A stretch of DNA of 64,000 nt from Yuukianura sp. NJ FZ-2021 (GCA_046563655.1 CM102285.1:2914001-2978000); one strand, 5' to 3'; counted from the first letter of the stretch, positions 5,988 through 63,862 are shown. Made by a program: numbers and translations. The notes: generated by a model from the sequence alone, not told the origin.

Positions 5988-6087
5988 NNNNNNNNNNNNN
6001 NNNNNNNNNNNNNNNNNNNNNNNNNNNNNNNNNNNNNNNNNNNNNNNNNNNNNNNNNNNNNNNNNNNNNNNNNNNNNNNNNNNNNNN
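5988..6087. other. Assembly gap (100 N)
   Basis: Run of N; a near-identical ~46-bp sequence lies on both sides. Confidence 0.99.
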
Positions 6088-35211: not shown

Positions 35212-36355
35212 ATGGTACAAACGGTAAGACATTCTTAAACCAAAACTGAATGTGTAAAAATTTTAGCTTAACAAAATTTGTATAACAATGTCCACATCTT
35301 TGAAATTTTAATCACTGAAAGTGGTGTTAATAAGTTGGAAGCATATCCAACAATCACTACTAAAAAAAAATAATGAGAAATTCTAAAAAAAAAAAAGTTG
35401 CTTTCTCTTAAATTTCTAGACGCTTTTCACTTGCTTGCTGGTGGTCGGCGCAGTTTGTGCTAGCGGTTATTATGGCAAACAGCCTTCCGAAGATGAAAAC
35501 CAAATAAATCCGGGGTTTCAGCAACCGAAACCCGTACGATACCCAAAACCGAACTACAGACCGGCTCCGCAATACCGACCGCATTTGAACTACCCCAAGT
35601 ACACTCCCGTGATACCGCAGTATGTTCCGGTTGCTTACCAACCGTATCCTGTATTCCATTACGTACCACAATATGTGCCGCAGTATGTCCACCACACACC
35701 TCCAGTTCAAGAAGAAGAGCAAAACATTCAACCAGCATTTCAAAAACCAACTCATCGCCCTACTTCACCTCCAGTCCAAGCTTACCCGGAATTCAAAGAT
35801 ACAACGCCCTCACCTCCAAGAGATGAAGAAGAACAAGATATTCAACCCGGATTTCAGCAACCTACTACCCGCCAACCTCCTGTCCAGTCTTACCCGGTTT
35901 TCCAACCTGACGAAGAGGAGCAAGACATTCAACCCGGATTTCAGCAACCGGTTCCAGAATCCAAACCGGTTTTTCCTGCTGTTGTACGGACACATGGGTA
36001 CCCATCTTTCAAAGTTCCAACGCCTTCAGTTCGTCCGGCTCTTCCTGTCCCTGATGAAGAAGAAACCGATATTCAACCTGGATTTCAACCCGCTCCGACA
36101 CCAGTACCGTCATTTCCAGCTCGTCGTCCATCATACTCCGCTCCCGTTCCGGACGAAGAAGAACAGGACATTCAACCCGCATTCCAACAACCAACCGTAC
36201 CGCCGGCTCCAGTCATACCGGTTCGTCAACCGGAACAACCTCGCTTCGACCCCTACATTGTCAACTATAGAAAATCTCCTAAGCCAAAGATTACCGAACA
36301 AGAACAAAGTATTCAAAATGCTGGTAAAAAGCCAATTGACCGATACCGGCGCTAG
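35212..36355 (+). CDS. Secreted Pro/Gln-rich low-complexity protein with repeated DEEEQDIQPGFQQP motif
   Basis: A 12-nt first exon (MVQT, 35212-35223), intron 35224-35419, signal peptide TLFTCLLVVGAVCA and a long open exon 2 with six motif copies. Confidence 0.85.
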
Positions 36356-41977: not shown

Positions 41978-42615
41978 TCAGTTCCATCCAGGTGAATTGT
42001 CTTCTGTATTTAATTTGTTCTCTATTTTCCACTCCTTGCGCCGATTCGTGAACCAAGTTGTGATTTGGCGTTCTGTCAAGCAGAGGGCATGGGCAATTTC
42101 AATTCGTCGCCTTCTCGTAAGATAGTGATTGAAGTGAAATTCCTTCTCCAGTTCCAGAGTCTGATATTGTGTATAGGTATACGTATAACAACCATCCTTA
42201 AGCTCATTAGGAAGTGTGAGTTCCTGCAGCAGCGTCGGCGTTTCCTCGGGGATTTGATGATCCCCCAGGCAGTTGTGTTTTTTATTTTCCACTCCTTGCG
42301 TCGATTCTTGAACCAAGTTGTGACTTGGCGTTCTGTCAAGCAGAGGGCATGGGCAATGTCAATTCGTCGCCTTTTCGTGAGATAGTGATTGAAGTGAAAT
42401 TCCTTCTCCAGTTCCAGCGTCTGATATTGTGTGTAATTGGTTTGACGAGCTCGCTCAAGCTCAATGGGAAGTATGACTTCCTGCGGCGGGGTTGGCGTTT
42501 CCCCAGGGATTTCATAATTCCCCCAGGCGATTGGGGTCATTCTCAAAACCCCAGGGTTTTGGCAGTTTGGGCATACTATGCACAAGTTCTGCATATTATC
42601 GCACAAGTTCTGCAT
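41978..42615 (-). CDS. Divergent Antp-class (Hox-derived) protein with two tandem homeodomains; 1-nt frameshift between them as assembled
   Basis: Two copies of [17 protein letters not shown](K/R)RRRI(D/E)[13 protein letters not shown](K/T)NRR in a 258-bp internal duplication. The frame break is at the C5 run 42262-42266. A TATA-like/Inr-like pair lies at ~42811/42780. Confidence 0.8.
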
Positions 42616-43660
42616 ATTGTCCTTTTCAGATGTGTGCACTTCAGAAACTTTCTTTTTGAAAAAAAGTTAAAACGAAACTTTGAACTCAAATTACGAGAAA
42701 TGATTTGAAAGCAAGGCATATTCAGTCTCTTGGCTGACCCGAAGAACAGAAGAACGAAACAGAGACAGAATTCCAACTAACGAACTATAGCGATGTTCTG
42801 CTGTATTTAAAGGAAAATTTTTAACCTAAGCCTTATGGCGTGAACTTAACAGTAAATAACAGGCCCTTTAAGCGACCTTCAACTAACCCAAACAACAACA
42901 CCCTTCGAGTATTTTATAGATTTTCCTTTAAAATTTCTTCATAAGTTTTTCCCAGAAGAAGGACAAAGTACATTGTTCCGAAAGCCTGGGATCTTTTCTC
43001 AATAAAACTAGTGTTAACAACTGGTGTACATACGAAAAATGAAAACTACCCTTAAGTTGTTTTTCTCCATTTAGAGAACAAAGAGCTCAAAGCATATTTT
43101 GCAAAACAAGCCCTCCTTAAGGATTCGAATGACACTGGGGACATAATAGCTTTTATAAGTTTTCGAAAGTTTGTAAGAAAAAATTAAAGAAACGCCTACT
43201 TTCACTTTCTACTGATTTGAGGTCACAAAATTTACGCTAACCAGGGCACTCGTGACAATAGCGACGAAGGAATGGAAACCCGGATGCGGGCATCTGTAGC
43301 ATTGTTTCTTTACATTTAAGAGTTTCTTTAGTGGATTTTATTGTTATACTTTATAGCTGTAATTATAATTAGAGAATAATTATGAATTTTAGAAGCTAAA
43401 CTTAAGTTACGGGAGCACGAATGCCTTGTTCCAAAAGAATTGTTTCTACGTACTTTTGTTCCAAAAGAATTGCTCAGATCAAATTGATTCTACAAAGACA
43501 AATTGACTCAAAACGTCAATTGTACCAAAGCTTTCTAAAAAGATTGCTTTTAATGCCCTGTTTCAAATGCCGATTCCTTCAAGTCAGGTTGCTTCTACAA
43601 GAATTGTTTAAAAAAGGTACAGCTGAAAAATACACAGTTCTAAAAACAAACTTGAACGCC

Positions 43661-46600
43661 CTACAATTTTACAAAAGAAAATTCCGGCTTTTTGTGCTTG
43701 AGAGGTCGTTTCGGTTCTGGAGGCGGAGGAGGTGGCGTAGCCGTTACTGGGGCGATTTCGTCAAGATCGGCACTACCGGCTCCTAAGGTGAACTTACCAC
43801 CACTGCTTCGTGAAGCCGATTGAATGTCTACGTCAACTTTAATTCCTTGTCCTTTGAGAAATGCATATAAAGATCCTCTAGTTGCAAGGAGATCTTTTAG
43901 ACGTCCAAATTCTGTAATTTGTCCTTTTTCCAAAAAGGCAATGTACTGACATTTTTTCATCGTTATGTACGAGTTGGTTACAAGCAGGGTCGTCCGGCCT
44001 TTGACCACGCTGTACATTGTACGTAGGACCGTCTGAACATAACCAACAAACAAACGAAGCATTTAAGCAAAGGTTTATTAATTTTAATTAAGTTTAAGTC
44101 TGATTTGAAACGAGAGCTGATGAAAACATACTTTTTCTTCCTCTGCATCTAGCGTACTTGTTGGGTCATCAAAAAGCAAGATCGGAGGATCCCTATAAAC
44201 ATAAAACCAAGTTAATATTTATTTAGAATCAGAAGTATAAATGGCTGAATAAACTTACTTTATAGTGGCTTGGGCAATTGCAATGGCTTGTCGTTGTCCT
44301 GGATTTAGTTTCTTTCCCTGCTCTCCGCATTTTGTATCATATTGCTACAAAGTTATCGTTTTAGTTTAGAGTGGAAAAATTTCTACTTTAGTTAACATAA
44401 ATTTAAGTTTATATTTCCTGATACTTATAAAACTATATTACACTACTACATATACTACCTAATAAATTATACACGTTTGTATTGTATCACTTACATGTGG
44501 AAGCTCATCAGCAATAAATTTTGCATTGGCAGCAGCCGCCGCTTCTTCTACAAGGACCTGAAGATCGCCACCTTCTTCAAATCCTTGGTAGCCGTAGGTA
44601 ATGTTATCCTTAACGGAGATGTCAAACAAATTAAGGTTTTGAGGAACGTAGCCAAGGTGGTTCCGCAGATACGCAACGTTAAAGTCACACAGGTCAATGC
44701 CATCAATGAGCTGCCGTTGAAACACAATTCAATCAAACATTTACATGCAATATTTTGTTTTATATAAATTATATTTTTTGTCTTGTAATTTTTTTTATTG
44801 CAAATTCTCACCACTCTACCGCCTGTAATTTCATAAAATCTTTCGAGAATCAACAGCAGAGTTGTCTTTCCAGCTCCACTGGGTCCAACTGCAATTTTAA
44901 AAACGCGGCAAATATATTTTTCGAAACACAAAATTCTTTAAAAAAGCGAAAGTACCTATTGCGACTACAGATCCAGCGGGGATTTTGAGATTGACCCCTT
45001 GAAGTACTTGTGTTTGTGGATTCTTAGGATAACTGCACCAAACATCCTTAAACTCAATGTCTCCTTTGATGTTCACTGGTTGAAGTCCAGTGGGACTGTA
45101 GGGGTCAAGGTCAGACTTTGCATCGATTAGTCTGAAAATGAAGGCAGCAGAGATCCTGGCCTTGAAAAATTCTGGAATGAAGCTCGTTGCTTGCCCAAGA
45201 CTCAAACTCCCAAAAGTGAGAACAAAAAATACGCTGCAATAAATTCCATTTTTTATAAATAACCAAAGGTAGTAATAGTTTTCCATTAAATTGTAGCAAG
45301 GGCAAAACATATTTCTTACATGAAAACATCAGAAACTTTCTTACATGAAAACATCAGAAACTTTCTTACATGAAAACATCAGAAACTTTCTTACATGAAA
45401 ACATCAGAAACTGCAAGCACTTTGGTTCGAATTAACTCTGCGCCAATCATGAAAGTTGCTCCAAATATGAAAAACATGAGACACTCGGAGGTTGCGTAAA
45501 CCAAAGCGTACCAAGCTGCTCTTTTGTGATCTTCACTAAATAAGAAAATTAGAAGTTACGCAAATTTTCATATGCTGAGCACTTCTATACTTACAATACT
45601 TGTTTGTAGTTGGAAAATTTATCTAAATTTACTGCTATTAAATTTCTAAAGAAATGTTAAAATGTGTTGCAACTTACATCAGAGCCGGATAAATTATGTT
45701 TTCTGTTTGACGACATATTGCAAATGCTGTACATGATGTCTGAATGGCTTCAACGTTCTTAATTACAAGACTCGTGACCTATGCAATTGAATTATATTGC
45801 AAACTATTTTAGTAAAATTCCTCAGTAAAAATAATTCGGTGAATGAAAATTTTAAATGTTAAAAATACAGTGGATTCTCTAAATAAGGGAAAAAATCACG
45901 ATTGGAGGATTGGTAGTAGGCGCCTCCCCCAGTACCGTAAGATTTCTGGTAAACGGTCACTTATATGGAATTTAAAGCTAGGAACACCATTCTAATGAAA
46001 ATTTCCTGTTTCGAAGTTCAGAGTATATAATTAATATTAATATAATATTCATATATTAATGCTAATTATATGTGATATCTATATACGTATCAATATTATA
46101 TGGTATATTATATGCAAATTACGTTGTGAATGTCACCCTTATTAAACAGGTTATATAATATAACATATTATATACAGTGCGCAGTTGCGCAGTTTGTGCG
46201 CAGTTGCGCAGTTATATATATATATATATATATATATAGCATAACTATATAAATATTATATATATATTAATGTTAGTTAATTTCATTTAATTATCTAATT
46301 ACTTTTGTTTCGCACCAAAAAAAAATTAACCAAAAAAAACAATCGTAAAAAATATGCCGATAAACTGAAACATACGTTCCCTCCAAAATTAAAACTTTAC
46401 GGTACCGCGACTTCGAGTGAAAGTGAGAAAGAGGAGGAGCTCATGTCCCTTATTTAGAGAATCCACTGTACTCGGATTTTTTTTAAATGCTTTTCTTACG
46501 TTAACAAGGTGGCGTCGAATAGTGGTCATGTTTGCATGCGACTTGCGTAATACTTTCCTGAGCACGTAGAAGCATATGATCAGAACTGGTATCGTCGAAG

Positions 46601-49600
46601 AAGCAGCGAGGGCAAGTTGCCAGCTAAAAATTGCCGCAATAACAAGCCCTGTGATCAATGTCATAATGGCACTAATAGCAATCCCCAAACGCTGACCTAT
46701 TGCCTAGTTAAAAAAATAAAAACAAAATTACTAATAACAAAATTTCCAACTTTAAAACAGACAATTGTAACAATCATGTTAAGTTCGTCTGTTTACATTT
46801 CTAATAAATGGAGTGTCGGATGCAAGTCGAGCGTACAGGAGTCCTGGAGTGTTCTCGTCGAAATCAAACCAACTTATGTGTTGCCTTAGAATGGATTCAA
46901 ACGATGCCAAGCGCAAACTCACTCCCAGTTGTTCTCCAAAAATTCCAATGAAAATTGTCCTGGCACAGTATCCCACTCCAGCCAAAAAGGCCAGTAGAAT
47001 TAACATTTCCACCCAGTGGATTCCAGAAGAAAATAAATTTTGTGTAGGTCCAACAAACATCTACAAAGAAAAATAACTTCTTTTAGAAAGTTCAACAAAA
47101 CTATTAGAAATGAGTCGTTTTCAATTTTTGATCAAATATACGTTGAGGATTTTTCCTAGACACAGTGCCAAAAGCGGAATAACGAGTCCGCTCAGTAAAC
47201 ATCCAAAAATTCCAAAATAGAGCAGGCGCGACTTGTCGGGCAGTGTGTGAACAACTCTGCAGATGGAAGGAATATCTTGGAAAATGGCATACTCATCTTC
47301 GAATGACTCAATCTTCTTGATTTGTACGCCAGGAGCGAAAGTGACTTTTTCTTTTTGGATCTAACTCCTTCCGAACGCTCTTTTTCGGCAATAAGATTTT
47401 CTTGAAGCAACATTCGCAGGTAGTCTCCTTCCAATTTCTGGAGTTCTTCATCCGTTCCACTTTCTGACACTTCACCATCCTGGTGAAACAAATTTTAGAA
47501 AATTTCAAAAACTAAACTTTTTGACTGTACAAAAAAATTGAAGTCACGATACGATGGGATGTAACGAATATCTTCAATATAGTATCTTTGCCAATTTAGA
47601 AGTGACATACCTTAAGCACAAAAATCTTTGTAGCGCCTCTCACAAGCGCCACTTTATTGTCCACTATAATTGTGGATGAAGATTTTCTCCACTCGGATAA
47701 ATTTTTCAAAATTTGTTCCGCTTCGATAGGGGCCAATAAAGACAGAACCTCGTGCAGTATCAAAATTTTCGGATTTGAAAGAATATATTTTGCAATGTAA
47801 ATTTTTATCCTAAAAATTCAACAAACTGCATGTGTCATGGTTCTCACTTTGTGTCATTAAAGTCAGTTTGTTTTACCGCTCTGTTGTCGAAAAGCTTCCG
47901 CCGTCTGGGCATAGAGCATTTGAAAGGTACCCCTGCAAGTAGTTTGATACAGACGACTTTCTAACTTAGAAAATGTGCAAAATACAAAACGAATGGCAAT
48001 TGCACAAATGGGAGTTAGAAAATCTCCTTACTGTGATGTAATAATGTCATTGCAAAATCTACCCATTTGCAAATTTGGTGGATATTGCACTGACAATAGG
48101 ACCTCAGAGAAAGGCAATTTCCTAACCCCGTTTGTGAAATTGCCATTGATTTTGTATTTTGCAAATTTAAGTTAGGAAGTCTTCTGCACTTGTAATGTGA
48201 ATTAAGTTGATTAATTACGTTGTTGAAATAGAATTACCTGCGGTAATTGTTGAATTCTATTGTGTATTAGCGCCATTTTTGCCGCCTTAATCACATGACT
48301 AATTGTGACTTCTTTTTTGAAGAAACGTATTACATCAAATATCGTCGCCGCATAAAGTGTCTTTAAAAAATGGAAATGGAAAAGTTGCTAGCAATTTTTC
48401 AGCTCCAAAAACTAGTAACTTGAATTTTAAAAAACAATATGGAATAACGGAATTATTAATGCTATCATTACCGGATTACGATTGACGACAGAAATTTGTT
48501 CCCGCAACCATCTCACGTTCTAAATTTTGTTTAAATTTTAGCATTTTGACTCGAGCCTTAAACTCTTATTCAAAGTGTTCTGTGGACTTAACTTACCAGT
48601 GAAGTAATGTCATTGTTGTCGAATATTACTTGACCTACTTGTGGATCGTAGAAACGCAGCATCATTTTTACAAATGTGCCCTTTCCAGAGCCGCCACGGC
48701 CAACAATAGCTGAATTATATGGAGAAAATGTTTAGTTTCGAAGCTTCTACTTTGTTGAGTTTGAACTTCTTACCAAATACTCCTTTGCCAGAGATTTCAA
48801 GGTTCATTTCCTTGAAAACCGGCTTCTGCTCTCGTCCGGGGTAGGCAAACGTTACGTTTGAAAATCTTACTCTGCCTGTAAAATCTCTCGGGCGTAAACC
48901 TAAACCATCAAAACCTATTGTTAAAGGTAACTTATCCTAAAAGTAGTTGAAGTAATTGTAAACTAATAAACATCAGCTGAAACTAGTAGCCTTTCCATAA
49001 CTAAAACTAACGAGGGAAAATTTCCAACCGGATGTCAAGTTTTTGATTTAAAAAATACAGTCATATTTTGAATGACAAAGGAAAATTTTCCGCAATAGTT
49101 TCGGTTGCCAACTCCAAAAAAATATCCCGACCTAGGCTAGAACCCGTGGCGCCACTCCAGTGGAATGAACCCAGAAATTTTTATGTCGAAATCTTCAACA
49201 GAAAACGTGTCTAGGATGTTTTTTCATACAATCTAGACGTTTTCTGTTGAAAAGTTGGACATAAAAAATATTTCCTCACTTTTTTCTGCAGTGGGGCCAT
49301 GGGTTCGAGCCCAGGTCGGAGTATTTATTTTGGCGTTGGCAACAGAAACTACTGCAGAAATTTGTCTTTTGGCATACAGAATATGAGTTTATTTTTTAAA
49401 TTCAAAAACATGACATCCGGTTGGGAATGTTCCCTCGTAAGTTATACGTTAAAACTAAGGATTAGGAACTTGCCTGAAAAACTGTATGGGTCAATTTCTG
49501 GAACAGAGTTTAGTACACTTCCCAATAGTTTACAGGATGCAAAGGAAGCAGCGATGCTGTTAACATACGGCAAGAGCATGCCAATTGCAAATGTACAAAT

Positions 49601-51720
49601 CGTGAGGCTGAAAAACACGGTGTAAATTTCTCCAGGGGTTATCACTCCTTCGGTCAGAAGATTGACGGAGTACCATAGTGCGACTGCGTAGAACGTGTAA
49701 ATCAAAAAGTACATTCCACCAATCCCAATTCCTGTTAAAACTTCCACTTTTTCAGCAGCTTTCGATCCACGCAGTAGCGCTTCCTTATAGCGCCTAACTA
49801 CTTTCCGTTCGCCAGACAGAGCAGCCAAGGTGCGTATGCCCATTAACGCTTCGGAACAAATTTTTCCAGCTTTAGCATATGCTTTGCGTTCCTTTGATGA
49901 TTTTTTCGTAATTTTCTGAAGAAAAAAAAAGAAGTTTGCTTTAAGAAAATTTGTGACAGAAAAATAGATTTTGTGCCAAAATATTTGAATTTTTGTTTTT
50001 ATAACAAAAAAGCTCACTGTCCAAATCAAAATCAGTTTTGTTATGATAAACGGTGCTGCTGCTAGGAAGACCAGCGTCAGTTTTGTGTTCGTCAATAGTC
50101 CAATTCCGGCTCCAAATAGTGCAATCGTAGTGTATTCAATTACGAACGCAAACTTTTGACCAACGCCTTCGCGAAACCGCTCGCAGTCACTAATTCGCAA
50201 AGTAAGTAGGTAGAGAGAAAACGGAATTCAATTGTTTTTATACGTTTATAGTATTTTTCAAGCAAATTTAAAAACTTTGTGTATAATTTTAAATTTTTAT
50301 TAAACTCACTCTGCAATTTTTAAAACAAGACCTCCAGTAGCACGGCGACCAAACCACGCCAGCTCTTGTCGTTGTAGCTGATAAATAAATTTCTGCCTGA
50401 TTCTGTACAGCTGATTTTCAGCAATCCATTCCCAAGTTATTGTCTTACAAAAAAAAGCACAAAATGCAAGTTATTTTGGTTGTGTAAACTTAAAAACAAA
50501 GAATGTTAATCGACAAACTGATGAGGAAGACTATATATGTTTCATTTAAAGCATAAATGCGCATTAATTTTGTGTACCTGAATAAATCCCGCAATAAAAA
50601 CGGCTGTGCCAATGTAGAAGTAATATGTCGAAAATTCTGCAATATAGGACGCAAAGTCCTCTGCCGTTTCAGTTCCGTTGCTGCTGTAAACGCTTAATTT
50701 CCCAAAATAACCGCCACTGCCTATATCATCCGACGATGGGATTCGACTGGAGTTCAATGCAGTATTGACTTTTGTCGTTACTTTGCTCAAGAACGACAAA
50801 GCCAATTGTCCGCTAATACCTAAATTCTGTTCATGCGTTCTTTCAGTAATATTGCTGTTTTGTTGCTCCTTTCAACAAAATGCAATGCGTAATAATTTTT
50901 TGTGAAACGATTTTTTTTAATTCTGGTAATTTGCTCATAGGTTCACTTACCAGAAGTGCATGAGTTATGTATGCATTTGATATTTTGCCAAATATTTTGA
51001 CTATAGAATTGTGTAACATATCAATTAGGAACGTTTTTTTAAACTGGTAGAATAGTTCAAATTTTTGAGCTCACATTGCCAATAATGGGAAACTTGCAGC
51101 ATGGATAATGGTGAAAATAACTCCAATGAAAAGTAAATAGCGATCACTTGTAGATGTGTATTCAAACTGCATCAGGATGCAAGCAAAATAATAGTGAAAA
51201 ACAATTACAAACATGGAAAGAAAAATTTCAAACATGCACAAAAAATTATAAACCGGAAAATAAAATTTTTAATCAAATCTCCGTTCTGTGAAAAGTGCTT
51301 ACCAGTTTTGAAACTTTGTAGAGCAAACCCTGTGCAAGTTCTTTTCCAGTGGCATCTTTTACATCATCAAAATCTTCATCATCCAAATCACTCTCATCTT
51401 CCTCATCATCTGAATGCCTGAATTAAAATGTAATTTTAAGAAATTATGCCATCAAAACTTAGTATGTTAGTTTGTACGAAATGTTAGAGTTTATGAATAA
51501 CAATAATAATACATGCTAAATAAACTGAATATAATAGAAACAATATAACCGTAAATGATAGCAATAAAGCACGGTTAGCTAACTTGTATCCCGTGTCGAT
51601 CAACAATTTTGTAGCTTCTGTTCCATGGAACTGTTGATTTTGTCGTCTAAGGTTTTCTAGTAATGGTTGAACATCCGGATTCAGTAAATATTTTGTTAAA
51701 CTTGACACAATAGAGCCCAT
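43661..51720 (-). CDS. Full-length ABCB (P-glycoprotein/MDR-like) transporter, >20 exons, degenerate NBD motifs
   Basis: TMD1-NBD1-TMD2-NBD2 order with MDR-like segments (ERKAYAKAGKICSEALMGIRT, SILRQHISWFDFDENTPGLLYARLASD, KGDIEFKDVWCSYP, GPSGAGKT). Exons chain in frame apart from two single-base anomalies (~47346-47356 and ~50997). Confidence 0.9.
45312..45411. repeat. Perfect tandem repeat, 4 x 25 bp
   Basis: Unit tttcttacatgaaaacatcagaaac at 45312, 45337, 45362 and 45387. Confidence 0.95.
45866..46470. mobile_element. Tc1/pogo-type non-autonomous element in an ABCB intron
   Basis: Perfect 25-bp inverted ends tacagtggattctctaaataaggga / tcccttatttagagaatccactgta (TA + CAGT terminus), with internal (TA)n and gcgcagtt repeats. 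Confidence 0.85.
47948..48188. mobile_element. MITE with ~80-bp imperfect TIRs in an ABCB intron
   Basis: tacagacgactttctaactta...gcaaaatacaaaa is mirrored by ttttgtattttgcaaatttaagttaggaagtcttctgca. Confidence 0.7.
49011..49437. mobile_element. Mariner-type MITE with ~150-bp imperfect TIRs in an ABCB intron
   Basis: Ends cgagggaa / ttccctcg-ta; the arms are collinear in inverse orientation, and a second hairpin lies in the middle. Confidence 0.8.
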
Positions 51721-52446: not shown

Positions 52447-54485
52447 TCAACAAATCAAGCGCCGTGTAGCAACTACGATAGCTAGTATGAGCATTGCGCC
52501 AAATCCAAGATTCTCTTTTCCCGCCATATTTCCACGTGACCCGTTGTAGGTAATCATAACAATTTGATCGTTGCTGTCGTCCGAGACAAACAAGTGACCT
52601 TGCTTGTTAAAAACTGCATTTACAGGCCGAAAACATGTTTGACACCCAATTGGATCATTTTCAAAGGCAATATCAACAACGTTGCCAGTTGGAGCGTAGT
52701 TGCTAGTTTTCGAAAATTCAATTCTGCCAATGGAGTAGCCCGCTCTGATGCTACTGTCTCTCCAGGAACCATGATATGCTACAATTGCGTCGTCTTTCAT
52801 GTCACATGGAAATGCACCATTGACCCCTGACCCCTCGCAGCTTTGTCCAGCGTAAAATTCAATTCCAAGCGGAGCAGTATGAGCGGGTAGAACAAGCACG
52901 GGAGGTATATTCTAGAAGGACATTGAAAAAAATGTTTTTAAGTTAGTTGAGAATACTGGAATAAAAAAATTAATTTGTAGTTTTTTGATGCTTTGCTTTA
53001 CATTTGCTGTAATTCTACACCAAGCATCCGTGTGAATTCCATCGTGCATGAAAGTTGGCCAGGCGAATTGAGTTCCTCTAGGATAACCTTCGAGGATGTC
53101 ACTGCTGAAGCAGTATGGGAAACCATGGTTACCACCGGGCTTACTGTTGCTGTAGTGATGAAGTTCGTCTCCGGGGTTATGGTCACCAATGTTAACACCT
53201 AAGTCAGGTCGATCCAGATCTTCTTCTGCGTTGTCAACTCCCCAGAGGTCACCGGCCTTGTCATAGGCAAGCCCCACCACGTTTCTTGTTCCATCAGCAA
53301 ACACCTAAGGGGTAAAATAAATAATTTTGAGAAAAGTATTTTTTTTCTCGAAAACTACAAATTGTTAATAGGGAGTTTGCGTTATAAGTCGTTTATAGTT
53401 TGTCTATTTTTAGAAGGCGGTTTTCAAATTTGAAAAAATTTTAGTCGCCTTATGGACCGTTAACACAGAAATTATCAATTTTGTGAAATTTTGTATACAA
53501 ACCTAATGGAGAAACAAGGTAAATAGAATATTGGAGAATATATGGAGAAAGTGTTTTTCAAAAACTGAGTTTTGCCATAAGCGTCGCAATGGAAGCGAAA
53601 AAATCAACGAAACAAACCCGCCTTCTAAAAATAGACAAACTATACAATTTACAGCGAGAAGTGACGTCACTTATTAAACTTTTCGGATTTGGAAAGTTTA
53701 TAAACATGGTTCATAAGTGCCATAAATGAGAAAAGTTTGGTAGTGACGTGACAGATTTGAAATCGACCAATCGCGGGGGGCGTAACAAAACGGCTGGCAT
53801 GGGGTTAAAAAAGGCGGGACTTGCTAAATTCTATACTTTCTATAAAATCTACAATTGATTTCAAGTGTAAACTTCCTAATAGAAAAAAAAAATTCTAAAA
53901 AATAACGATTTTGTCTCTTACTTCTCCAGTGTTAAATTCAATTGGAAAGCTAGACTTTGCAGAGATATCAAACCGCCGAATTCTTGCTCGATTTGAATTC
54001 GGATCGACATTGTCTGCTGATCCAACAGTAACGATCAGTCGTCCTTGGGCATCAAAGATCAAAGTCCGTGTCACGTGACCTCCAGTAGGCATTCCCTTAA
54101 TGACGACTTCCTCAGCAGCAGTGACAGTCTTCCTTGTTCCAGCTACATAGCGCCAGCGGTATACAGTGGATGCGCTTGAAGCATAGACATAACCTTCACG
54201 ATACGTAACTCCATGGGTCAGGTCAAGTCCTCGACCATCCACAATCATATTCTTAAAAAACGCTTGTCCTCCATCTATTTCCTTCATTGCAAAAATACAA
54301 GAAGTGCCGGATGACAGAATTAAAATGTCACCTGAATCATCCACAAATAGTCCCCGCGGCTTTTCGATTAAAGCAACCTGTTGAGCCCTGTAGCCTGACG
54401 CTGTTTGAATTTTTGCAGCACCATTTTGAAATGAAAGTACCAGAACGCAGGATACCAAAAGCGATATATTAAGTAATGCGATCAT
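52447..54485 (-). CDS. Secreted PQQ-type sugar dehydrogenase (sorbosone dehydrogenase / CAZy AA12-like beta-propeller), 3 exons
   Basis: Exons 54485-53922, 53304-53002 and 52911-52447 join in frame. Signal peptide; motifs GGHVTRTL, VTVGSADNVD, DGTRNVVG, WGVDN, NPGDEL, GFPYC, AHTAPLG, YHGSW, RPV; hydrophobic C-terminus. Confidence 0.8.
53394..53644. mobile_element. MITE (TA-flanked) in dehydrogenase intron 1
   Basis: Perfect inverted ends tatagtttgtctatttttagaaggcgg / ccgccttctaaaaatagacaaactata. Confidence 0.85.
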
Positions 54486-54619
54486 ATTGATCTCGTAATG
54501 TGGAAAATAGGCGTTGACGCCAAAATGTTTCTTCTAGGTTTCAAATTTTCACAGGGTTTTTGAAACACAACTAACAGAACACGACTATTATTTAGAAGAT
54601 GTCGTTAGGTTTTATTTAT

Positions 54620-55874: not shown

Positions 55875-57089
55875 TCAACGTAAAGTAAGTAGTAGGTCAA
55901 TTGTTGTGTTCAAAATAACACTACCGAATACTTGTAGACAAAAGTTTCTACTGCGAATGGTAAACAAGCTACCCATGCTTACTTCAATAGGGCGACAAGA
56001 TTTCCTAAAAGTGCGTTCAAATTTGCTGAGGCACGAATCCGTATATGTGTAGTATCGTGTTGAGTTTACACTAACATATACGCAGTTCTGAATAATCAAC
56101 ATTGAAACAGTGACCACTCCTGTATCCAACACAATCAACATCAAAAGTACACCAACGTTAAACTTAGCCCAAGCCTTGACTATTGTAACCGACAAAGAGA
56201 TGGTAATAAAAGTGTTTGCGTAGTAAGCAAACTGCATGCCAAAGTACAGAAATTCCGTGGTAAATATGTGGAGTATCTGGACTTTTCTGTAGCATTTTTG
56301 CAGTACTTCGCGCCAAACAGCATCTGCAAACCGCTGTTTCTCTGCTACAAATAGAAGAAATTGGGCACTGCGGTAAATTTGGACGAACAAGGGAAGTAGA
56401 CTGAAGCCGGCCCAGTACGCGTTGAATCCATCCACAACCACGAGCACAAAAGTTGTAGCTGTCTTTGCAAGAAGGTTATTCTCAATGAAGATTTTGAAAA
56501 ATGAGGTCAAAAATTCAACCAAAAAGTTGTTTGCAAATGTCGCCAAAATGCTCAAAATAACAGTTTCCAGCAGGATTGATTTGAACAGTACATTAAATGC
56601 TTTTAGGAAGAGGTTGAGCCATTCCATATTTCGTGCCATTGACTCCGAAAATAGGTTCTCTTGTAATCAAAACGTGCGTGTTACTTATAGTTAAACCTGT
56701 AAATTCAAAGTTCACTAATTAGTTAATTTTTTTTACATACTTGCTTCGTTGTCTACTTCCAAGAATTTGTTGACGTAGTTACATGCAGCATGTAAATTTG
56801 TATCCCATAAGTACTCCGTCTGCATTCCATACGCCAGAAGTGTCGCAAACGCCACATTCATTATGAATTCGAACGGTTGGCTTTTCCGGTCATACATCTG
56901 GGCAAAAAACATTAGGAGTTGCGCAATAGAAAGCAAACGGATAACCGTTTTAAGTGGAGTTATTTTTGAGGTTCCCTGAACCAAAATTTCCATTTTCCAC
57001 TTGCAATCTGTGTATGTCAATTTGTAGGGGCAAATTTTTAAAAACCTACCAATACTTAGGTATTTATCGTAGTAAACGCAGTAAAACAT
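55875..57089 (-). CDS. Gustatory-receptor-like 7TM chemoreceptor, paralog 1 (~378 aa, 2 exons)
   Basis: Exons 57089-56741 and 56659-55875; multiple TM segments; C-terminal SCRPIEVSMGSLFTI...ILNTTIDLLL resembles the GR/OR TM7 region. Confidence 0.65.
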
Positions 57090-58176
57090 TTTCACTTCAA
57101 CGTAAAAGGTAAAGACTTAAATACAAGTAACGTTTTATGAAAACTTATTTTAAAAAACTTTAGAGGCAATGGTATATAATTGCGGATCGCAGGACTCGAA
57201 AATCAAACTGGGAATCACTATAAAAATTCGTAAACCAGCATTAGGCTTTTTTAGCTTTGAAAATAGTATAATGAACTGTAAATAATGCATTTGCAATTCG
57301 CGAAGTACATTACTCAACCCAACGCTAAAAGATGTCATGATTGGCGTAGGCTTCCTCTGGATACATAATGCATCACGATATTTGACTCATCAGTGAACGC
57401 CCTATTGGTACTGTTTTGGTGCACTTAAATTTGCAATAAGCTTCCTAATGGTTTTAGGGTTTTACAACCTTCATAATTGATAACTTTGGAACACACATAA
57501 CAGTTTTCAAAAGCAATAGAAAGTTAAAAATGAAAAAGTAATATTGAACAAAAAGAGAAAAGGGATAGAATTTGGAAAACAAGAAAAGACCAATACTACT
57601 GGCAAGCTTTTTATCAATAAAGTATTACTTTAAACTTTAGAAGCAAGTCCTTGAAATATAATTTAGGTTTTAGAAATATGTCTTTGTCGTAAATAATGCA
57701 ACTTATTGGTTTTACTAGAAGAATTTTTACATACTTATTTTTTTCTTTTTACGGTACACCATACTTATAGAATGTCTCTAACCTATAATTAAACAATATT
57801 TGCAACAGCATTGGACAGTTAATGAATATATTACTTGGTGGCAGTAAATCCAACGATTTGGCTATTTAACTCCTGCCATAAATTACAAAGGTCAAAACAC
57901 AAAAGTTTTTAAAAATCATGTCACTACTTTTGGGATGTTAGACTGTCTTATCTCCTATCCAAGGTTATAGTATGTAGTTGCAGGAAACACATGGGACTTC
58001 ATTGCCTGTTTGACACACTCTAAAAGTATAAATTATTCTGCAATCCCCGTAAGCTGCGGAGTGTCGAACCGGAAAGAAATGCATTTGAAGTTAAATTCGA
58101 TCTTGTAATCGTCGGAAAAACGTAGAACGATCGCGAATAGGTGATATATAAGGTTGATTGATAAATAACATGTAAG

Positions 58177-61730: not shown

Positions 61731-62943
61731 TCAACGAAAAGTAAGTAGTATGTCAATTGTTGTGTTCAAAATAACACTACCGAATACTTGTAGACAAAAG
61801 TTTCTACTGCGAATGGTAAACAAGCTACCCATGTGAATTTCAAGTGGGCGACAAGATTTCCTAAAAGTGCGCTCAAATTGGCTGAGGCAGGGATCGGTAG
61901 AAGTGCAGTATTGCGTTGAATTTAGACTAAAATATACGCTGTGCTGAATGATCAACATTGAAAAAGTGATCACTCCTATATCCAAGACAAGTAGCATCAA
62001 AAGTACAGCGATGTTAAACTCAGCCCAAGCCTTGACTATTGTAACCGACAAAGAGATGGTAATAAAAGTGTTTGCGTAGTAAGCAAACTGCATTCCAAAC
62101 CACAAAAATTCCGAGGTAAATATGTGGAATACCTGAACTTTTCGGTAGAATTTTTCAAGTTTTTCGCGCCAAACTGCATCTCCAATCGTCTGCTTCTCTG
62201 CTACAAATAGAAGGCATTGGGCAGTGCAGTAAATTTGTACAAACAAAGGAAGTAGACTGAAGCCTGCCCAGTACGTGTTGAATTCAGCGATAACAACAAG
62301 CACAAATGATGCACCCATGTTTGCAAGAAGGCTGTTTTCCACGAACATTTTAAAAAATGAGGTCCAGAAGTCAACCAAAAAGTTGTTTGAAAATATCGCC
62401 AAAATGATCATAATGGCAACTTCCAGTAGGATTGTTTCGAACAATACATTAAAGGCTTTGAGGAACAAATGGAGCCGTTTATTATTTCGTGCCATAGACT
62501 CCGAAAATAAATCCCCTTGTGATTAAAAAAAAAACACAAAATTTAGTGAACTAAAGTTAACGTTTTCTTAATTTTTTTCTGTTTTACATACGTGCTTCTT
62601 GGTCTACTTCCAAGAATTTGTTGATGTAGTTAATGACAGCTTGTAGATCCGTATCCCACAAATACTCTGTCTGCATTCCGTACGCCACAAGTGTGGCATA
62701 CGCTACGTTCATGATGAAATGGAAAGGTTGGCTTTTTGTGTCATACATCTGACCAAAGAGCATTAGGAGTTGCACAGTATTCAGCAAACGGAATACCATT
62801 TTAAGTCGAGCTGCAATTTTTGAGGTTCGTTGGACCAAAACGTCCATTTTCCATTTGCGTTCTGCGTATGTCAGTTTGTAAGGGCAAATCTTAAAAAACC
62901 TGCCAATACGTAGGTAGTTGTCGTAGTATACATAGTAAGACAT
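61731..62943 (-). CDS. Gustatory-receptor-like 7TM chemoreceptor, paralog 2
   Basis: Exons 62943-62592 and 62515-61731; same phase-1 intron as paralog 1 and aligns to it end to end. Confidence 0.65.
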
Positions 62944-63862
62944 TTTGATTTGAAAGTGCTTTAAAGAAGCAAAAACTAAAATAAAGGTAAAGTTTTTCGA
63001 CGAATTTTTTCAGTAAAACAAAAGTTGGAAATGATTTTTGCTTGATATTCTCCTGCCTTGCAAACGACCAATAACCAGCGGTATACTTGTGGATCATACG
63101 ACTCGGTATCCAACCTTGAAATGGCTATAAGAAATTCATAAGCCAATTTCAGCAGGCTTCTTTTTTCAACCGGAAAAATATATAATGAACTGTAAATAAT
63201 TACTGTACAAAGTTTGGGACGAAATTCTCAACAGTAAAGGATCTAACTCTGTCAAATACTAAATACTTGATGATTGAAGCATGTATTTCCTTGGAAAAGA
63301 AATGTGCTTTGAATATTGTATCAAGATATCCTACTCATTAGTGAACTCCGCATTGGTTCTTCTTTTATGCTATCCTTAGATTAGGCACAATAGCTTGTAT
63401 AAGGTTCTACCACGTTCGCGTTGATGAATTAAAAACTAAGGAAGATAAGGGAAAAGTGAAATTTTGGCCCAAAGTCCAACAAAAAAGTTGCGCTGTTGCT
63501 AAATGCAAATGTTTTTAAAATCAATTACACGTTACTTGACAACGACATGTAATTAGTTTACTTTCGATACAATCAGAAAGTTAAACAAGCAGTTAAGCTA
63601 TTATATGTAAAGTACATCTTATGTTTGTTCGCTTTAAAAAAAAACACTCTAATTTATTGTAAAGATAAACATAAAAAGCAGCCACAAAAATTCTAAAAGT
63701 GCCGGAAATTTTAATACAAGACACTCTGCCTAATAATGCGGTAAACAAAAAAACTGAATTCCATTTCCTAATGAAGATAGAGAAAACACTTAAGCCCCTG
63801 CAAGCAAAAAATAAAGGCTACCGTAGGTCGCTTACGGGACAGGGTAGACGCGTACGGAGCAA

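Follow-up and report, generated by a model that had tools for sequence, protein, structure and literature searches.

A full-length ABCB-type gene of Yuukianura sp. with non-canonical motifs at both ATP sites

What can a full-length ATP-binding cassette (ABC) exporter still do when neither of its two ATP sites carries the canonical set of catalytic residues? To our knowledge, ABC exporters are understood as machines in which at least one hydrolysing ATP site is required. This question is raised by an ABCB-type gene within 64,000 nucleotides (nt) of DNA from Yuukianura sp. NJ FZ-2021 (GCA_046563655.1 CM102285.1:2914001-2978000), the whole of which we call the window and number from its first letter. 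The coding region lies on the minus strand at 43661-51720, with the ATG at 51720 and the stop codon at 43663-43661, and both nucleotide-binding domains (NBDs) of its product deviate from consensus. The reading we favour, to which we give about an even chance, is that of a paralogue in the animal P-glycoprotein family that is kept by selection, specific to its lineage and evolving fast. Its product would bind ATP at NBD2 but barely hydrolyse it, and would be a gated facilitator, act as a regulator or transport very slowly. If such a protein is maintained with both sites crippled, it would test what nucleotide binding alone achieves (gating, facilitated diffusion, regulation), and would separate the NBD residues that serve folding and coupling to the transmembrane domains (TMDs) from those that serve catalysis. 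If the locus is a young pseudogene, it represents ordinary gene decay after relaxed constraint.

To determine the state of each ATP site, the motifs of both NBDs were located in the translated model and compared with alignments of 40 full-length homologues and of 90 homologues in all. They are given below, with the number of homologues that carry the canonical residue.

48701-48678, minus strand: NBD1 Walker A, GRGGSGKG; Lys kept, the following Ser/Thr replaced by Gly (Ser/Thr in 89/89 homologues)
48489-48472, minus strand: NBD1 Q-loop, VVNRNP; Gln replaced by Arg (Gln in 89/90)
47893-47879, minus strand: NBD1 signature, FSTTE (canonical LSGGQ); Ser kept, the replaced Gly, Gly and Gln each present in 89/89
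47766-47749, minus strand: NBD1 Walker B, ILILHE; Asp replaced by His (Asp in 88/88), catalytic Glu kept
47742-47731, minus strand: NBD1 D-loop, SLLA; Asp replaced by Ala (Asp in 87/88)
47667-47653, minus strand: NBD1 H-loop, IVDNK; His replaced by Asn (His in 87/89)
44886-44863, minus strand: NBD2 Walker A, GPSGAGKT; intact
44647-44633, minus strand: NBD2 Q-loop, VPQNL; Gln intact
44308-44294, minus strand: NBD2 signature, LNPGQ (Ser in 85/88, first Gly in 84/88)
44179-44165, minus strand: NBD2 Walker B, LLFDD; catalytic Glu replaced by Asp (Glu in 82/83)
NBD2 D-loop, STLD; intact
43984-43970, minus strand: NBD2 H-loop, LVTNS; His replaced by Asn (His in 83/84)

The A-loop Tyr of NBD2 is also intact. 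In the alignment with the 40 full-length homologues, the canonical residue occupied 37-40 of 40 rows at each deviating position, and with the 90 homologues the deviating columns were canonical in 82/83 to 89/89 sequences at most positions. Counted over composite sites, site 1 deviates at 6/10 key residues and site 2 at 5/10. For a census of composite sites, eight of the 90 homologues that were incomplete at key columns were left out. Among the remaining 82, both sites were canonical in 76, four deviated at site 1 only and two at both sites. Of the last two, one comes from a partial gene model of a fungus, in which NBD2 has gaps. Setting this model aside, P0141, a multidrug resistance protein of the oomycete Globisporangium polare, is the only one of the 82 with deviations at both composite sites, and the catalytic residues of its NBD1 are intact: Walker A, the Asp-Glu pair of Walker B, LSGGQ and the H-loop are all kept, and an Arg in the Q-loop is the only change. 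Its degeneracy falls mostly in NBD2 (Walker A …GDSKN, Gln to Asn in the Q-loop, His to Ser in the H-loop, signature LSSGQ), which is the reverse of the usual polarity, in a lineage unrelated to the present gene, and judged by these motifs one of its ATP sites may well be active. Every NBD1 and NBD2 motif reported in the first-pass annotation was present and fell in the expected alignment column. Its statement that both ATPase sites are degenerate holds in the sense that both composite sites are non-canonical by sequence, a state shared with 2/82 complete homologues. The label of candidate pseudo-ATPase is overstated for NBD2, whose ATP-binding residues stay intact and for which impaired hydrolysis alone is predicted.

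The two consensus ATP sites of ABCB full transporters are therefore not found in this gene. A degenerate site 1 is familiar from the asymmetric exporters (ABCB11/BSEP, TAP1/2, ABCC proteins including CFTR and SUR, and Pdr5), and site 1 is non-canonical here as well (GKG in Walker A, Arg for Gln, His for Asp, Asn for His, and LNPGQ). The extent is greater, as NBD1 has also lost the Walker A Ser, the Walker B Asp and the Q-loop Gln, which exceeds the usual degeneracy of site 1. In NBD2, the combination of Asp for Glu in Walker B with a changed H-loop resembles what we take to be the state of the degenerate NBD of TAP1. The main difference from the asymmetric exporters lies in site 2, which by sequence is not a consensus site (LLFDD, LVTNS, FSTTE). 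PMC7756269 and PMC7544095 describe asymmetric exporters as keeping a hydrolysing consensus site 2, whereas here the catalytic Glu and the switch His are gone and FSTTE lies opposite. According to PMC7756269, degeneracy in human full-length ABC proteins always falls on site 1, and transport is energised by site 2. A search of the open-access literature by literal terms returned reviews and single-site cases only; it yielded no description of a natural ABCB protein with both sites degenerate, and the term 'pseudo-ATPase' was absent from the papers that one of its queries listed.

These motif states suggest how the protein might handle nucleotide. Because the Mg-coordinating Walker A Ser, Walker B Asp and Q-loop Gln and the switch His have been lost from site 1, whose partner signature from NBD2 is LNPGQ, this site probably does not take Mg-ATP at all. 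At site 2, the A-loop Tyr, Walker A, Q-loop Gln, Walker B Asp and D-loop of NBD2 would still hold ATP, and their integrity makes ATP binding there likely. With the general base Glu changed to Asp, the switch His changed to Asn and the site closed by the FSTTE signature of NBD1, hydrolysis is predicted to be very slow or nil, in which case the protein would be no conventional primary pump.

We consider it unlikely that the protein is still an ATP-driven pump, in which site 2 hydrolyses through an Asp that acts as general base and an Asn at the switch position, and site 1 is degenerate and structural, as in ABCB11, TAP or the ABCC proteins. The residues that NBD2 retains (the A-loop Tyr, GPSGAGKT, the Q-loop Gln, the Walker B Asp and STLD) would suit such a pump, as would the Ser kept in the signature of NBD1. 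However, ABCB1 has only residual ATPase once the Glu of both its Walker B motifs is changed to Asp, Gln or Ala (PMC7756269), and here the switch His is lost too. Furthermore, the signature that closes site 2 has both Gly and the Gln replaced, each invariant in 89/89 homologues, and all four homologues with degeneracy at site 1 only keep a canonical site 2.

There is a precedent, by analogy, for a protein of the kind we favour. PMC4242082 reports that substitution of the D-loop Asp turned TAP into a passive nucleotide-gated facilitator, suggesting that binding of nucleotide without hydrolysis can gate translocation. NBD1 here likewise has its D-loop Asp substituted, with Ala at that position. 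The D-loop mutant of TAP and the double Walker B mutants of ABCB1 are laboratory changes in otherwise canonical transporters, whereas the present case is a natural gene with many more changes and is known from sequence. A bolder version, which we regard as possible but doubtful, is a natural ABC 'pseudo-pump': a P-glycoprotein fold under selection in which neither site hydrolyses, and which would act as an ATP-gated passive, channel-like facilitator, or as a scaffold or regulator through its C-terminal tail. On this view, the engineered TAP facilitator would have its natural equivalent in this gene.

The loss of catalytic motifs was accompanied by a marked acceleration of the ATPase domains. 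In maximum-likelihood trees, the terminal branch leading to this gene measured 1.37 for the NBDs against a median of 0.45 (3.0-fold), and 1.34 against 0.78 (1.7-fold) for the TMDs. Mean identity followed the same pattern, with NBD1 at 0.345 to its homologues versus 0.549 among the homologues themselves, NBD2 at 0.407 versus 0.544, and the two TMDs at 0.27 and 0.25 versus 0.34 and 0.30. Between its own NBD1 and NBD2 the model shows 29% identity, where 38 homologues average 57%. Judged by this divergence, the extra constraint that usually acts on the ATPase domains is largely gone, most of all in NBD1, and the TMDs behave, on the same measures, as in an ordinary though fast-evolving ABCB protein. 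The moderate excess divergence of the TMDs fits a kept translocation pathway, and to this extent also favours the ATP-driven pump discussed above.

Is the gene otherwise an ABCB transporter? The domain order TMD-NBD-TMD-NBD within a single polypeptide was recovered from Pfam searches with the exon open reading frames (ORFs), from profile matches along the locus and from the spliced model. Among the 10 exon ORFs searched against Pfam, three matched ABC_membrane and two ABC_tran; the other five, including the exon with the NBD1 Walker B, had no family at E<=0.1. ABC_membrane was found for TMD1 on ORF 49442-50227 (E=9.7e-28) and for TMD2 on ORFs 46779-47060 and 46389-46703. When the plant ABCB protein P0001 was compared with the window by tblastn, matches at E<1e-3 were confined to this locus, the two other matches having E>=0.86. 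The closest solved structures were ABCB1 and ABCB4 (E=1.4e-33 for exon 8), with plant ABCB1/19 and BSEP also among the top PDB matches. A profile search with the ORF of exons 7-8 returned 2064 proteins at E<=1e-3, the best full-length match reaching 36% identity, and the best named full-length matches were Mdr65 (cricket), ABCB1 (bug) and P-glycoproteins. In the TMD tree the gene was sister to hemipteran ABCB1 plus P0031 (support 0.875). Assignment to ABCB rather than ABCC, ABCA or ABCG follows the ranking of PDB matches, as the tree held ABCB-like proteins only. Insect Mdr49/50/65 and ABCB1 share the domain order and exon-level homology over the whole length of this gene, and its extracellular loop 1 carries N-x-S/T sites, as in ABCB1-type transporters. 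In comparison to ABCB1/Mdr proteins, it differs in being at most 36% identical to any full-length protein found and in bearing a proline-rich C-terminal tail of 63 residues.

The locus appears as a string of short open pieces on the minus strand of an AT-rich window (GC content about 0.34-0.40). A gene model was built from all frame-compatible pairs of donors and acceptors between ORF blocks with homology. This yielded 25 exons that join into one frame of 4140 nt, corresponding to 1379 codons plus the terminal stop, and 24 introns of 50-875 nt, of which 23 are GT-AG and one, following exon 8, is GC-AG (donor CAG|GCAAGT at 49474). The domains of the model are as follows.

49493-51166, minus strand: TMD1, model residues 85-455, exons 3-8
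47402-48876, minus strand: NBD1, residues 475-714, exons 9-15, from motif columns against the 40 and the 90 homologues
47256-47366, minus strand: linker, with a frame switch at the A-run AAAAAGAAAAAG, from a three-frame view
45122-47267, minus strand: TMD2, residues 743-1054, exons 16-20, including the 875-nt intron 18, from Pfam and hidden Markov model (HMM) matches
43853-45064, minus strand: NBD2, residues 1074-1316, exons 20-25, from motif columns against homologues
43664-43852, minus strand: C-terminal extension of 63 residues past NBD2, from translation; homologues give no support

The coordinates proposed in the first-pass annotation (43661-51720) coincide exactly with the ATG and stop of the rebuilt model, and its description as a full-length ABCB transporter is borne out by the domain order and by ABCB1 and ABCB4 as closest structures.

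Given the divergence of the NBDs, we asked whether the gene is maintained or decaying. Exons have a GC content of 0.423 and introns of 0.290. Codon-position structure was found in all domains, NBD1 included (GC at first positions 0.49, purines at first positions 0.63), and was absent from introns. The spliced frame contains no in-frame stop in 1379 codons, and the open frame is not a product of chance, since introns and the alternative frames of the exons carry 0.055-0.073 stops per codon. When neutral decay was simulated up to the excess divergence of each domain, 1/500 replicates remained free of stops for NBD1 and 7/500 for NBD2. Simulated decay thus rarely spared the frame, which argues that the frame was under selection while the motifs changed. 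Nor were features of a processed copy or of a relaxed pseudogene found: all 24 introns are kept, and composition has not relaxed to background. The gene is not long dead.

Further evidence for retention came from two protein fragments among the matches of the exon 7-8 profile search, which resemble the gene much more closely than the best full-length match. P0086 matches exon 7 (residues 251-313) at 42 of 63 positions (67%), and P0002 matches exon 8 (residues 316-462) at 92 of 147 (63%; 119 positive), both without gaps. Both derive from one contig of 1919 bp, and they diverge from the gene just past the same exon ends, including a read-through of the GC donor. Such ungapped matches with shared ends show that another copy, diverged but split into exons in the same way, exists elsewhere. 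A word-based search with exon 8 among longer proteins gave a single match, an ABCB19-like protein of hop at 28% identity.

Against a selectively maintained gene stand several points, the first of which concern two junctions, between exons 3 and 4 and in the linker. Exon 4 is 50 nt long (51000-50951). In the canonical splice frame it reads IQNIWQN... and loses the conserved IFG-type segment, whereas the alternative frame reads KIFGKISNAYI, matching this segment of homologues (…PLLA / KIFGKISNAYI…). HMM scores across exons 3/4 were 18.4 bits for the spliced frame versus 21.9 bits for the other. Exon 5 regains the frame only through acceptors at 50819 or 50780, whereas the acceptor at 50868, which is in phase 0, does not restore it. 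Crossing the frame switch of the linker takes either a GT-AG intron, for which lengths of 50, 71 and 89 nt are available, or a change of 1 nt in the A-run; the acceptor at 47256 has a good pyrimidine tract, but the candidate introns have an exon-like GC content of 0.38-0.43, compared with 0.23-0.36 in the other 23 introns. Both spots lie at A-runs, and at each the splicing may be unusual, the assembly may be wrong or the frame may truly be shifted. The remaining points concern the evidence for selection and function. The fragments P0086 and P0002 cover TMD1 only, and no orthologue of the NBD exons was found with the ORF of the NBD1 Walker B exon (0/1 candidates) or with the last exon (0/5), in searches that needed shared words of five residues and covered limited length ranges. 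The decay simulation is crude: the present sequence was its starting point, point substitutions were the only changes allowed, and the excess divergence was taken to have arisen in one neutral phase. Finally, ATP binding and absent hydrolysis are predictions from motifs alone.

The junctions bear most directly on a young unitary pseudogene, in which an already diverged ABCB paralogue recently lost its function to a 1-nt frameshift at one or two A-runs and the open frame of 25 exons is partly a product of the choice of alternative splice sites. This we judge rather improbable. It would account for a conserved segment at exons 3/4 that is readable only in a frame outside canonical splicing, at the higher of the two HMM scores, and for a linker switch at AAAAAGAAAAAG whose candidate introns resemble exons in GC. 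In addition, the adjacent TrAA12-like gene reads without frame repair, so there is no sign of general indel errors in the assembly. On the other side, the 1379 codons lack any in-frame stop, and phasing is clean at the 22 remaining junctions. GT-AG introns can also bridge the two doubtful ones (exon 5 acceptors at 50780 or 50819; linker acceptor at 47256), a difference of 3.5 bits is weak, and the composition of the exons is still fully coding-like. Even if the gene was disabled, the loss of motifs would be the older event, because neutral decay cannot explain it.

An artefact, either through homopolymer errors in the assembly or through a gene model that misses exons with canonical motifs, is very improbable. 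Both ambiguous junctions do fall at A-runs, and the window contains a scaffold gap of 100 N at 5988-6087. However, the degenerate motifs lie inside well-supported exons, their flanking residues match the homologues position for position, and the 27 residues from signature to Walker B align without gaps. The two long introns hold inverted repeats, a three-frame listing shows no alternative signature exon, and about 11 independent motif substitutions are beyond what single-base errors would produce. A selectively maintained paralogue, presumably expressed, with ATP binding at NBD2 and little hydrolysis, is the reading we retain. The first-pass description of a retained protein agrees with the open frame, the coding-type composition, the simulation and the P0086/P0002 matches, and is tempered by the two ambiguous junctions and by the young pseudogene as a competing reading; the non-pumping roles that it suggests (nucleotide sensor, channel regulator or scaffold) are conjectural. 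Likewise, its count of more than 20 open exons with proper splice sites stands, with 25 exons and no in-frame stop, except at the exon 3/4 and linker junctions.

The C-terminal tail contains a PPPPPPEP run at 43735-43712 and a hydrophobic end (...FVKL), and is open up to the stop. Typical P-glycoproteins terminate shortly after NBD2. An earlier donor upstream may shorten the candidate tail, and a role as ligand of a peptide-binding domain is speculation.

Introns 8 and 12 owe their large size to inserted inverted-repeat elements.

49002-49446: insertion in intron 8 resembling a miniature inverted-repeat transposable element, with repeats I1 and I2 that are 82-87% complementary
47971-48168: inverted-repeat element in intron 12, with 51-nt arms that are 82% complementary

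Three further candidates within the introns were rejected. A tRNA-derived short interspersed element was considered for intron 8, where a tRNA-like gene was looked for and none was found. An exon missed in the 875-nt intron 18 was discarded, as homologues span this junction at equal length. An alternative canonical signature exon in intron 12 was also dismissed, as the inverted-repeat element lies there and the three-frame listing held no SGG-type ORF.

Neighbouring ORFs in the window encode homeodomains, an NF-YB-type histone fold, EF-hands, leucine-rich repeats and a TrAA12-like protein, as well as a seven-transmembrane-like ORF whose nearest ESM-Atlas clusters are in Arthropoda. Directly upstream of the ABCB gene, at 52447-54533 on the minus strand, lies the TrAA12-like gene (a beta-propeller of the pyrroloquinoline quinone-dependent sugar-dehydrogenase type). 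Its three ORF pieces match successive, non-overlapping parts of the profile without frame repair, and its C-terminus is hydrophobic. About 1 kb past the 3' end of the ABCB gene, at 41978-42666 on the minus strand, are two tandem homeobox units, whose repeats (42016-42175 and 42276-42435) lie about 260 nt apart and are 94% identical over 160 nt. Both match the Pfam Homeodomain (E=3e-18 and 9e-18), in different frames of overlapping ORFs, and are Hox-like but divergent; possible explanations are duplicated genes, use as alternative exons, or a tandem duplication of recent date.

Two tandem paralogous copies on the minus strand, at 55875-57116 and 61731-63009, each comprise an ORF of 127-141 residues and an ORF of 263 residues rich in hydrophobic segments. 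No Pfam family was found for either copy, and the nearest ESM-Atlas clusters were arthropod proteins (scores 0.95-0.97). They may represent a lineage-specific family of multi-pass membrane proteins or receptors. Finally, an open frame of 311 residues on the plus strand at 35420-36355 consists of repeats rich in proline and glutamine, in which the unit …DEEEQDIQPGFQQP… recurs.

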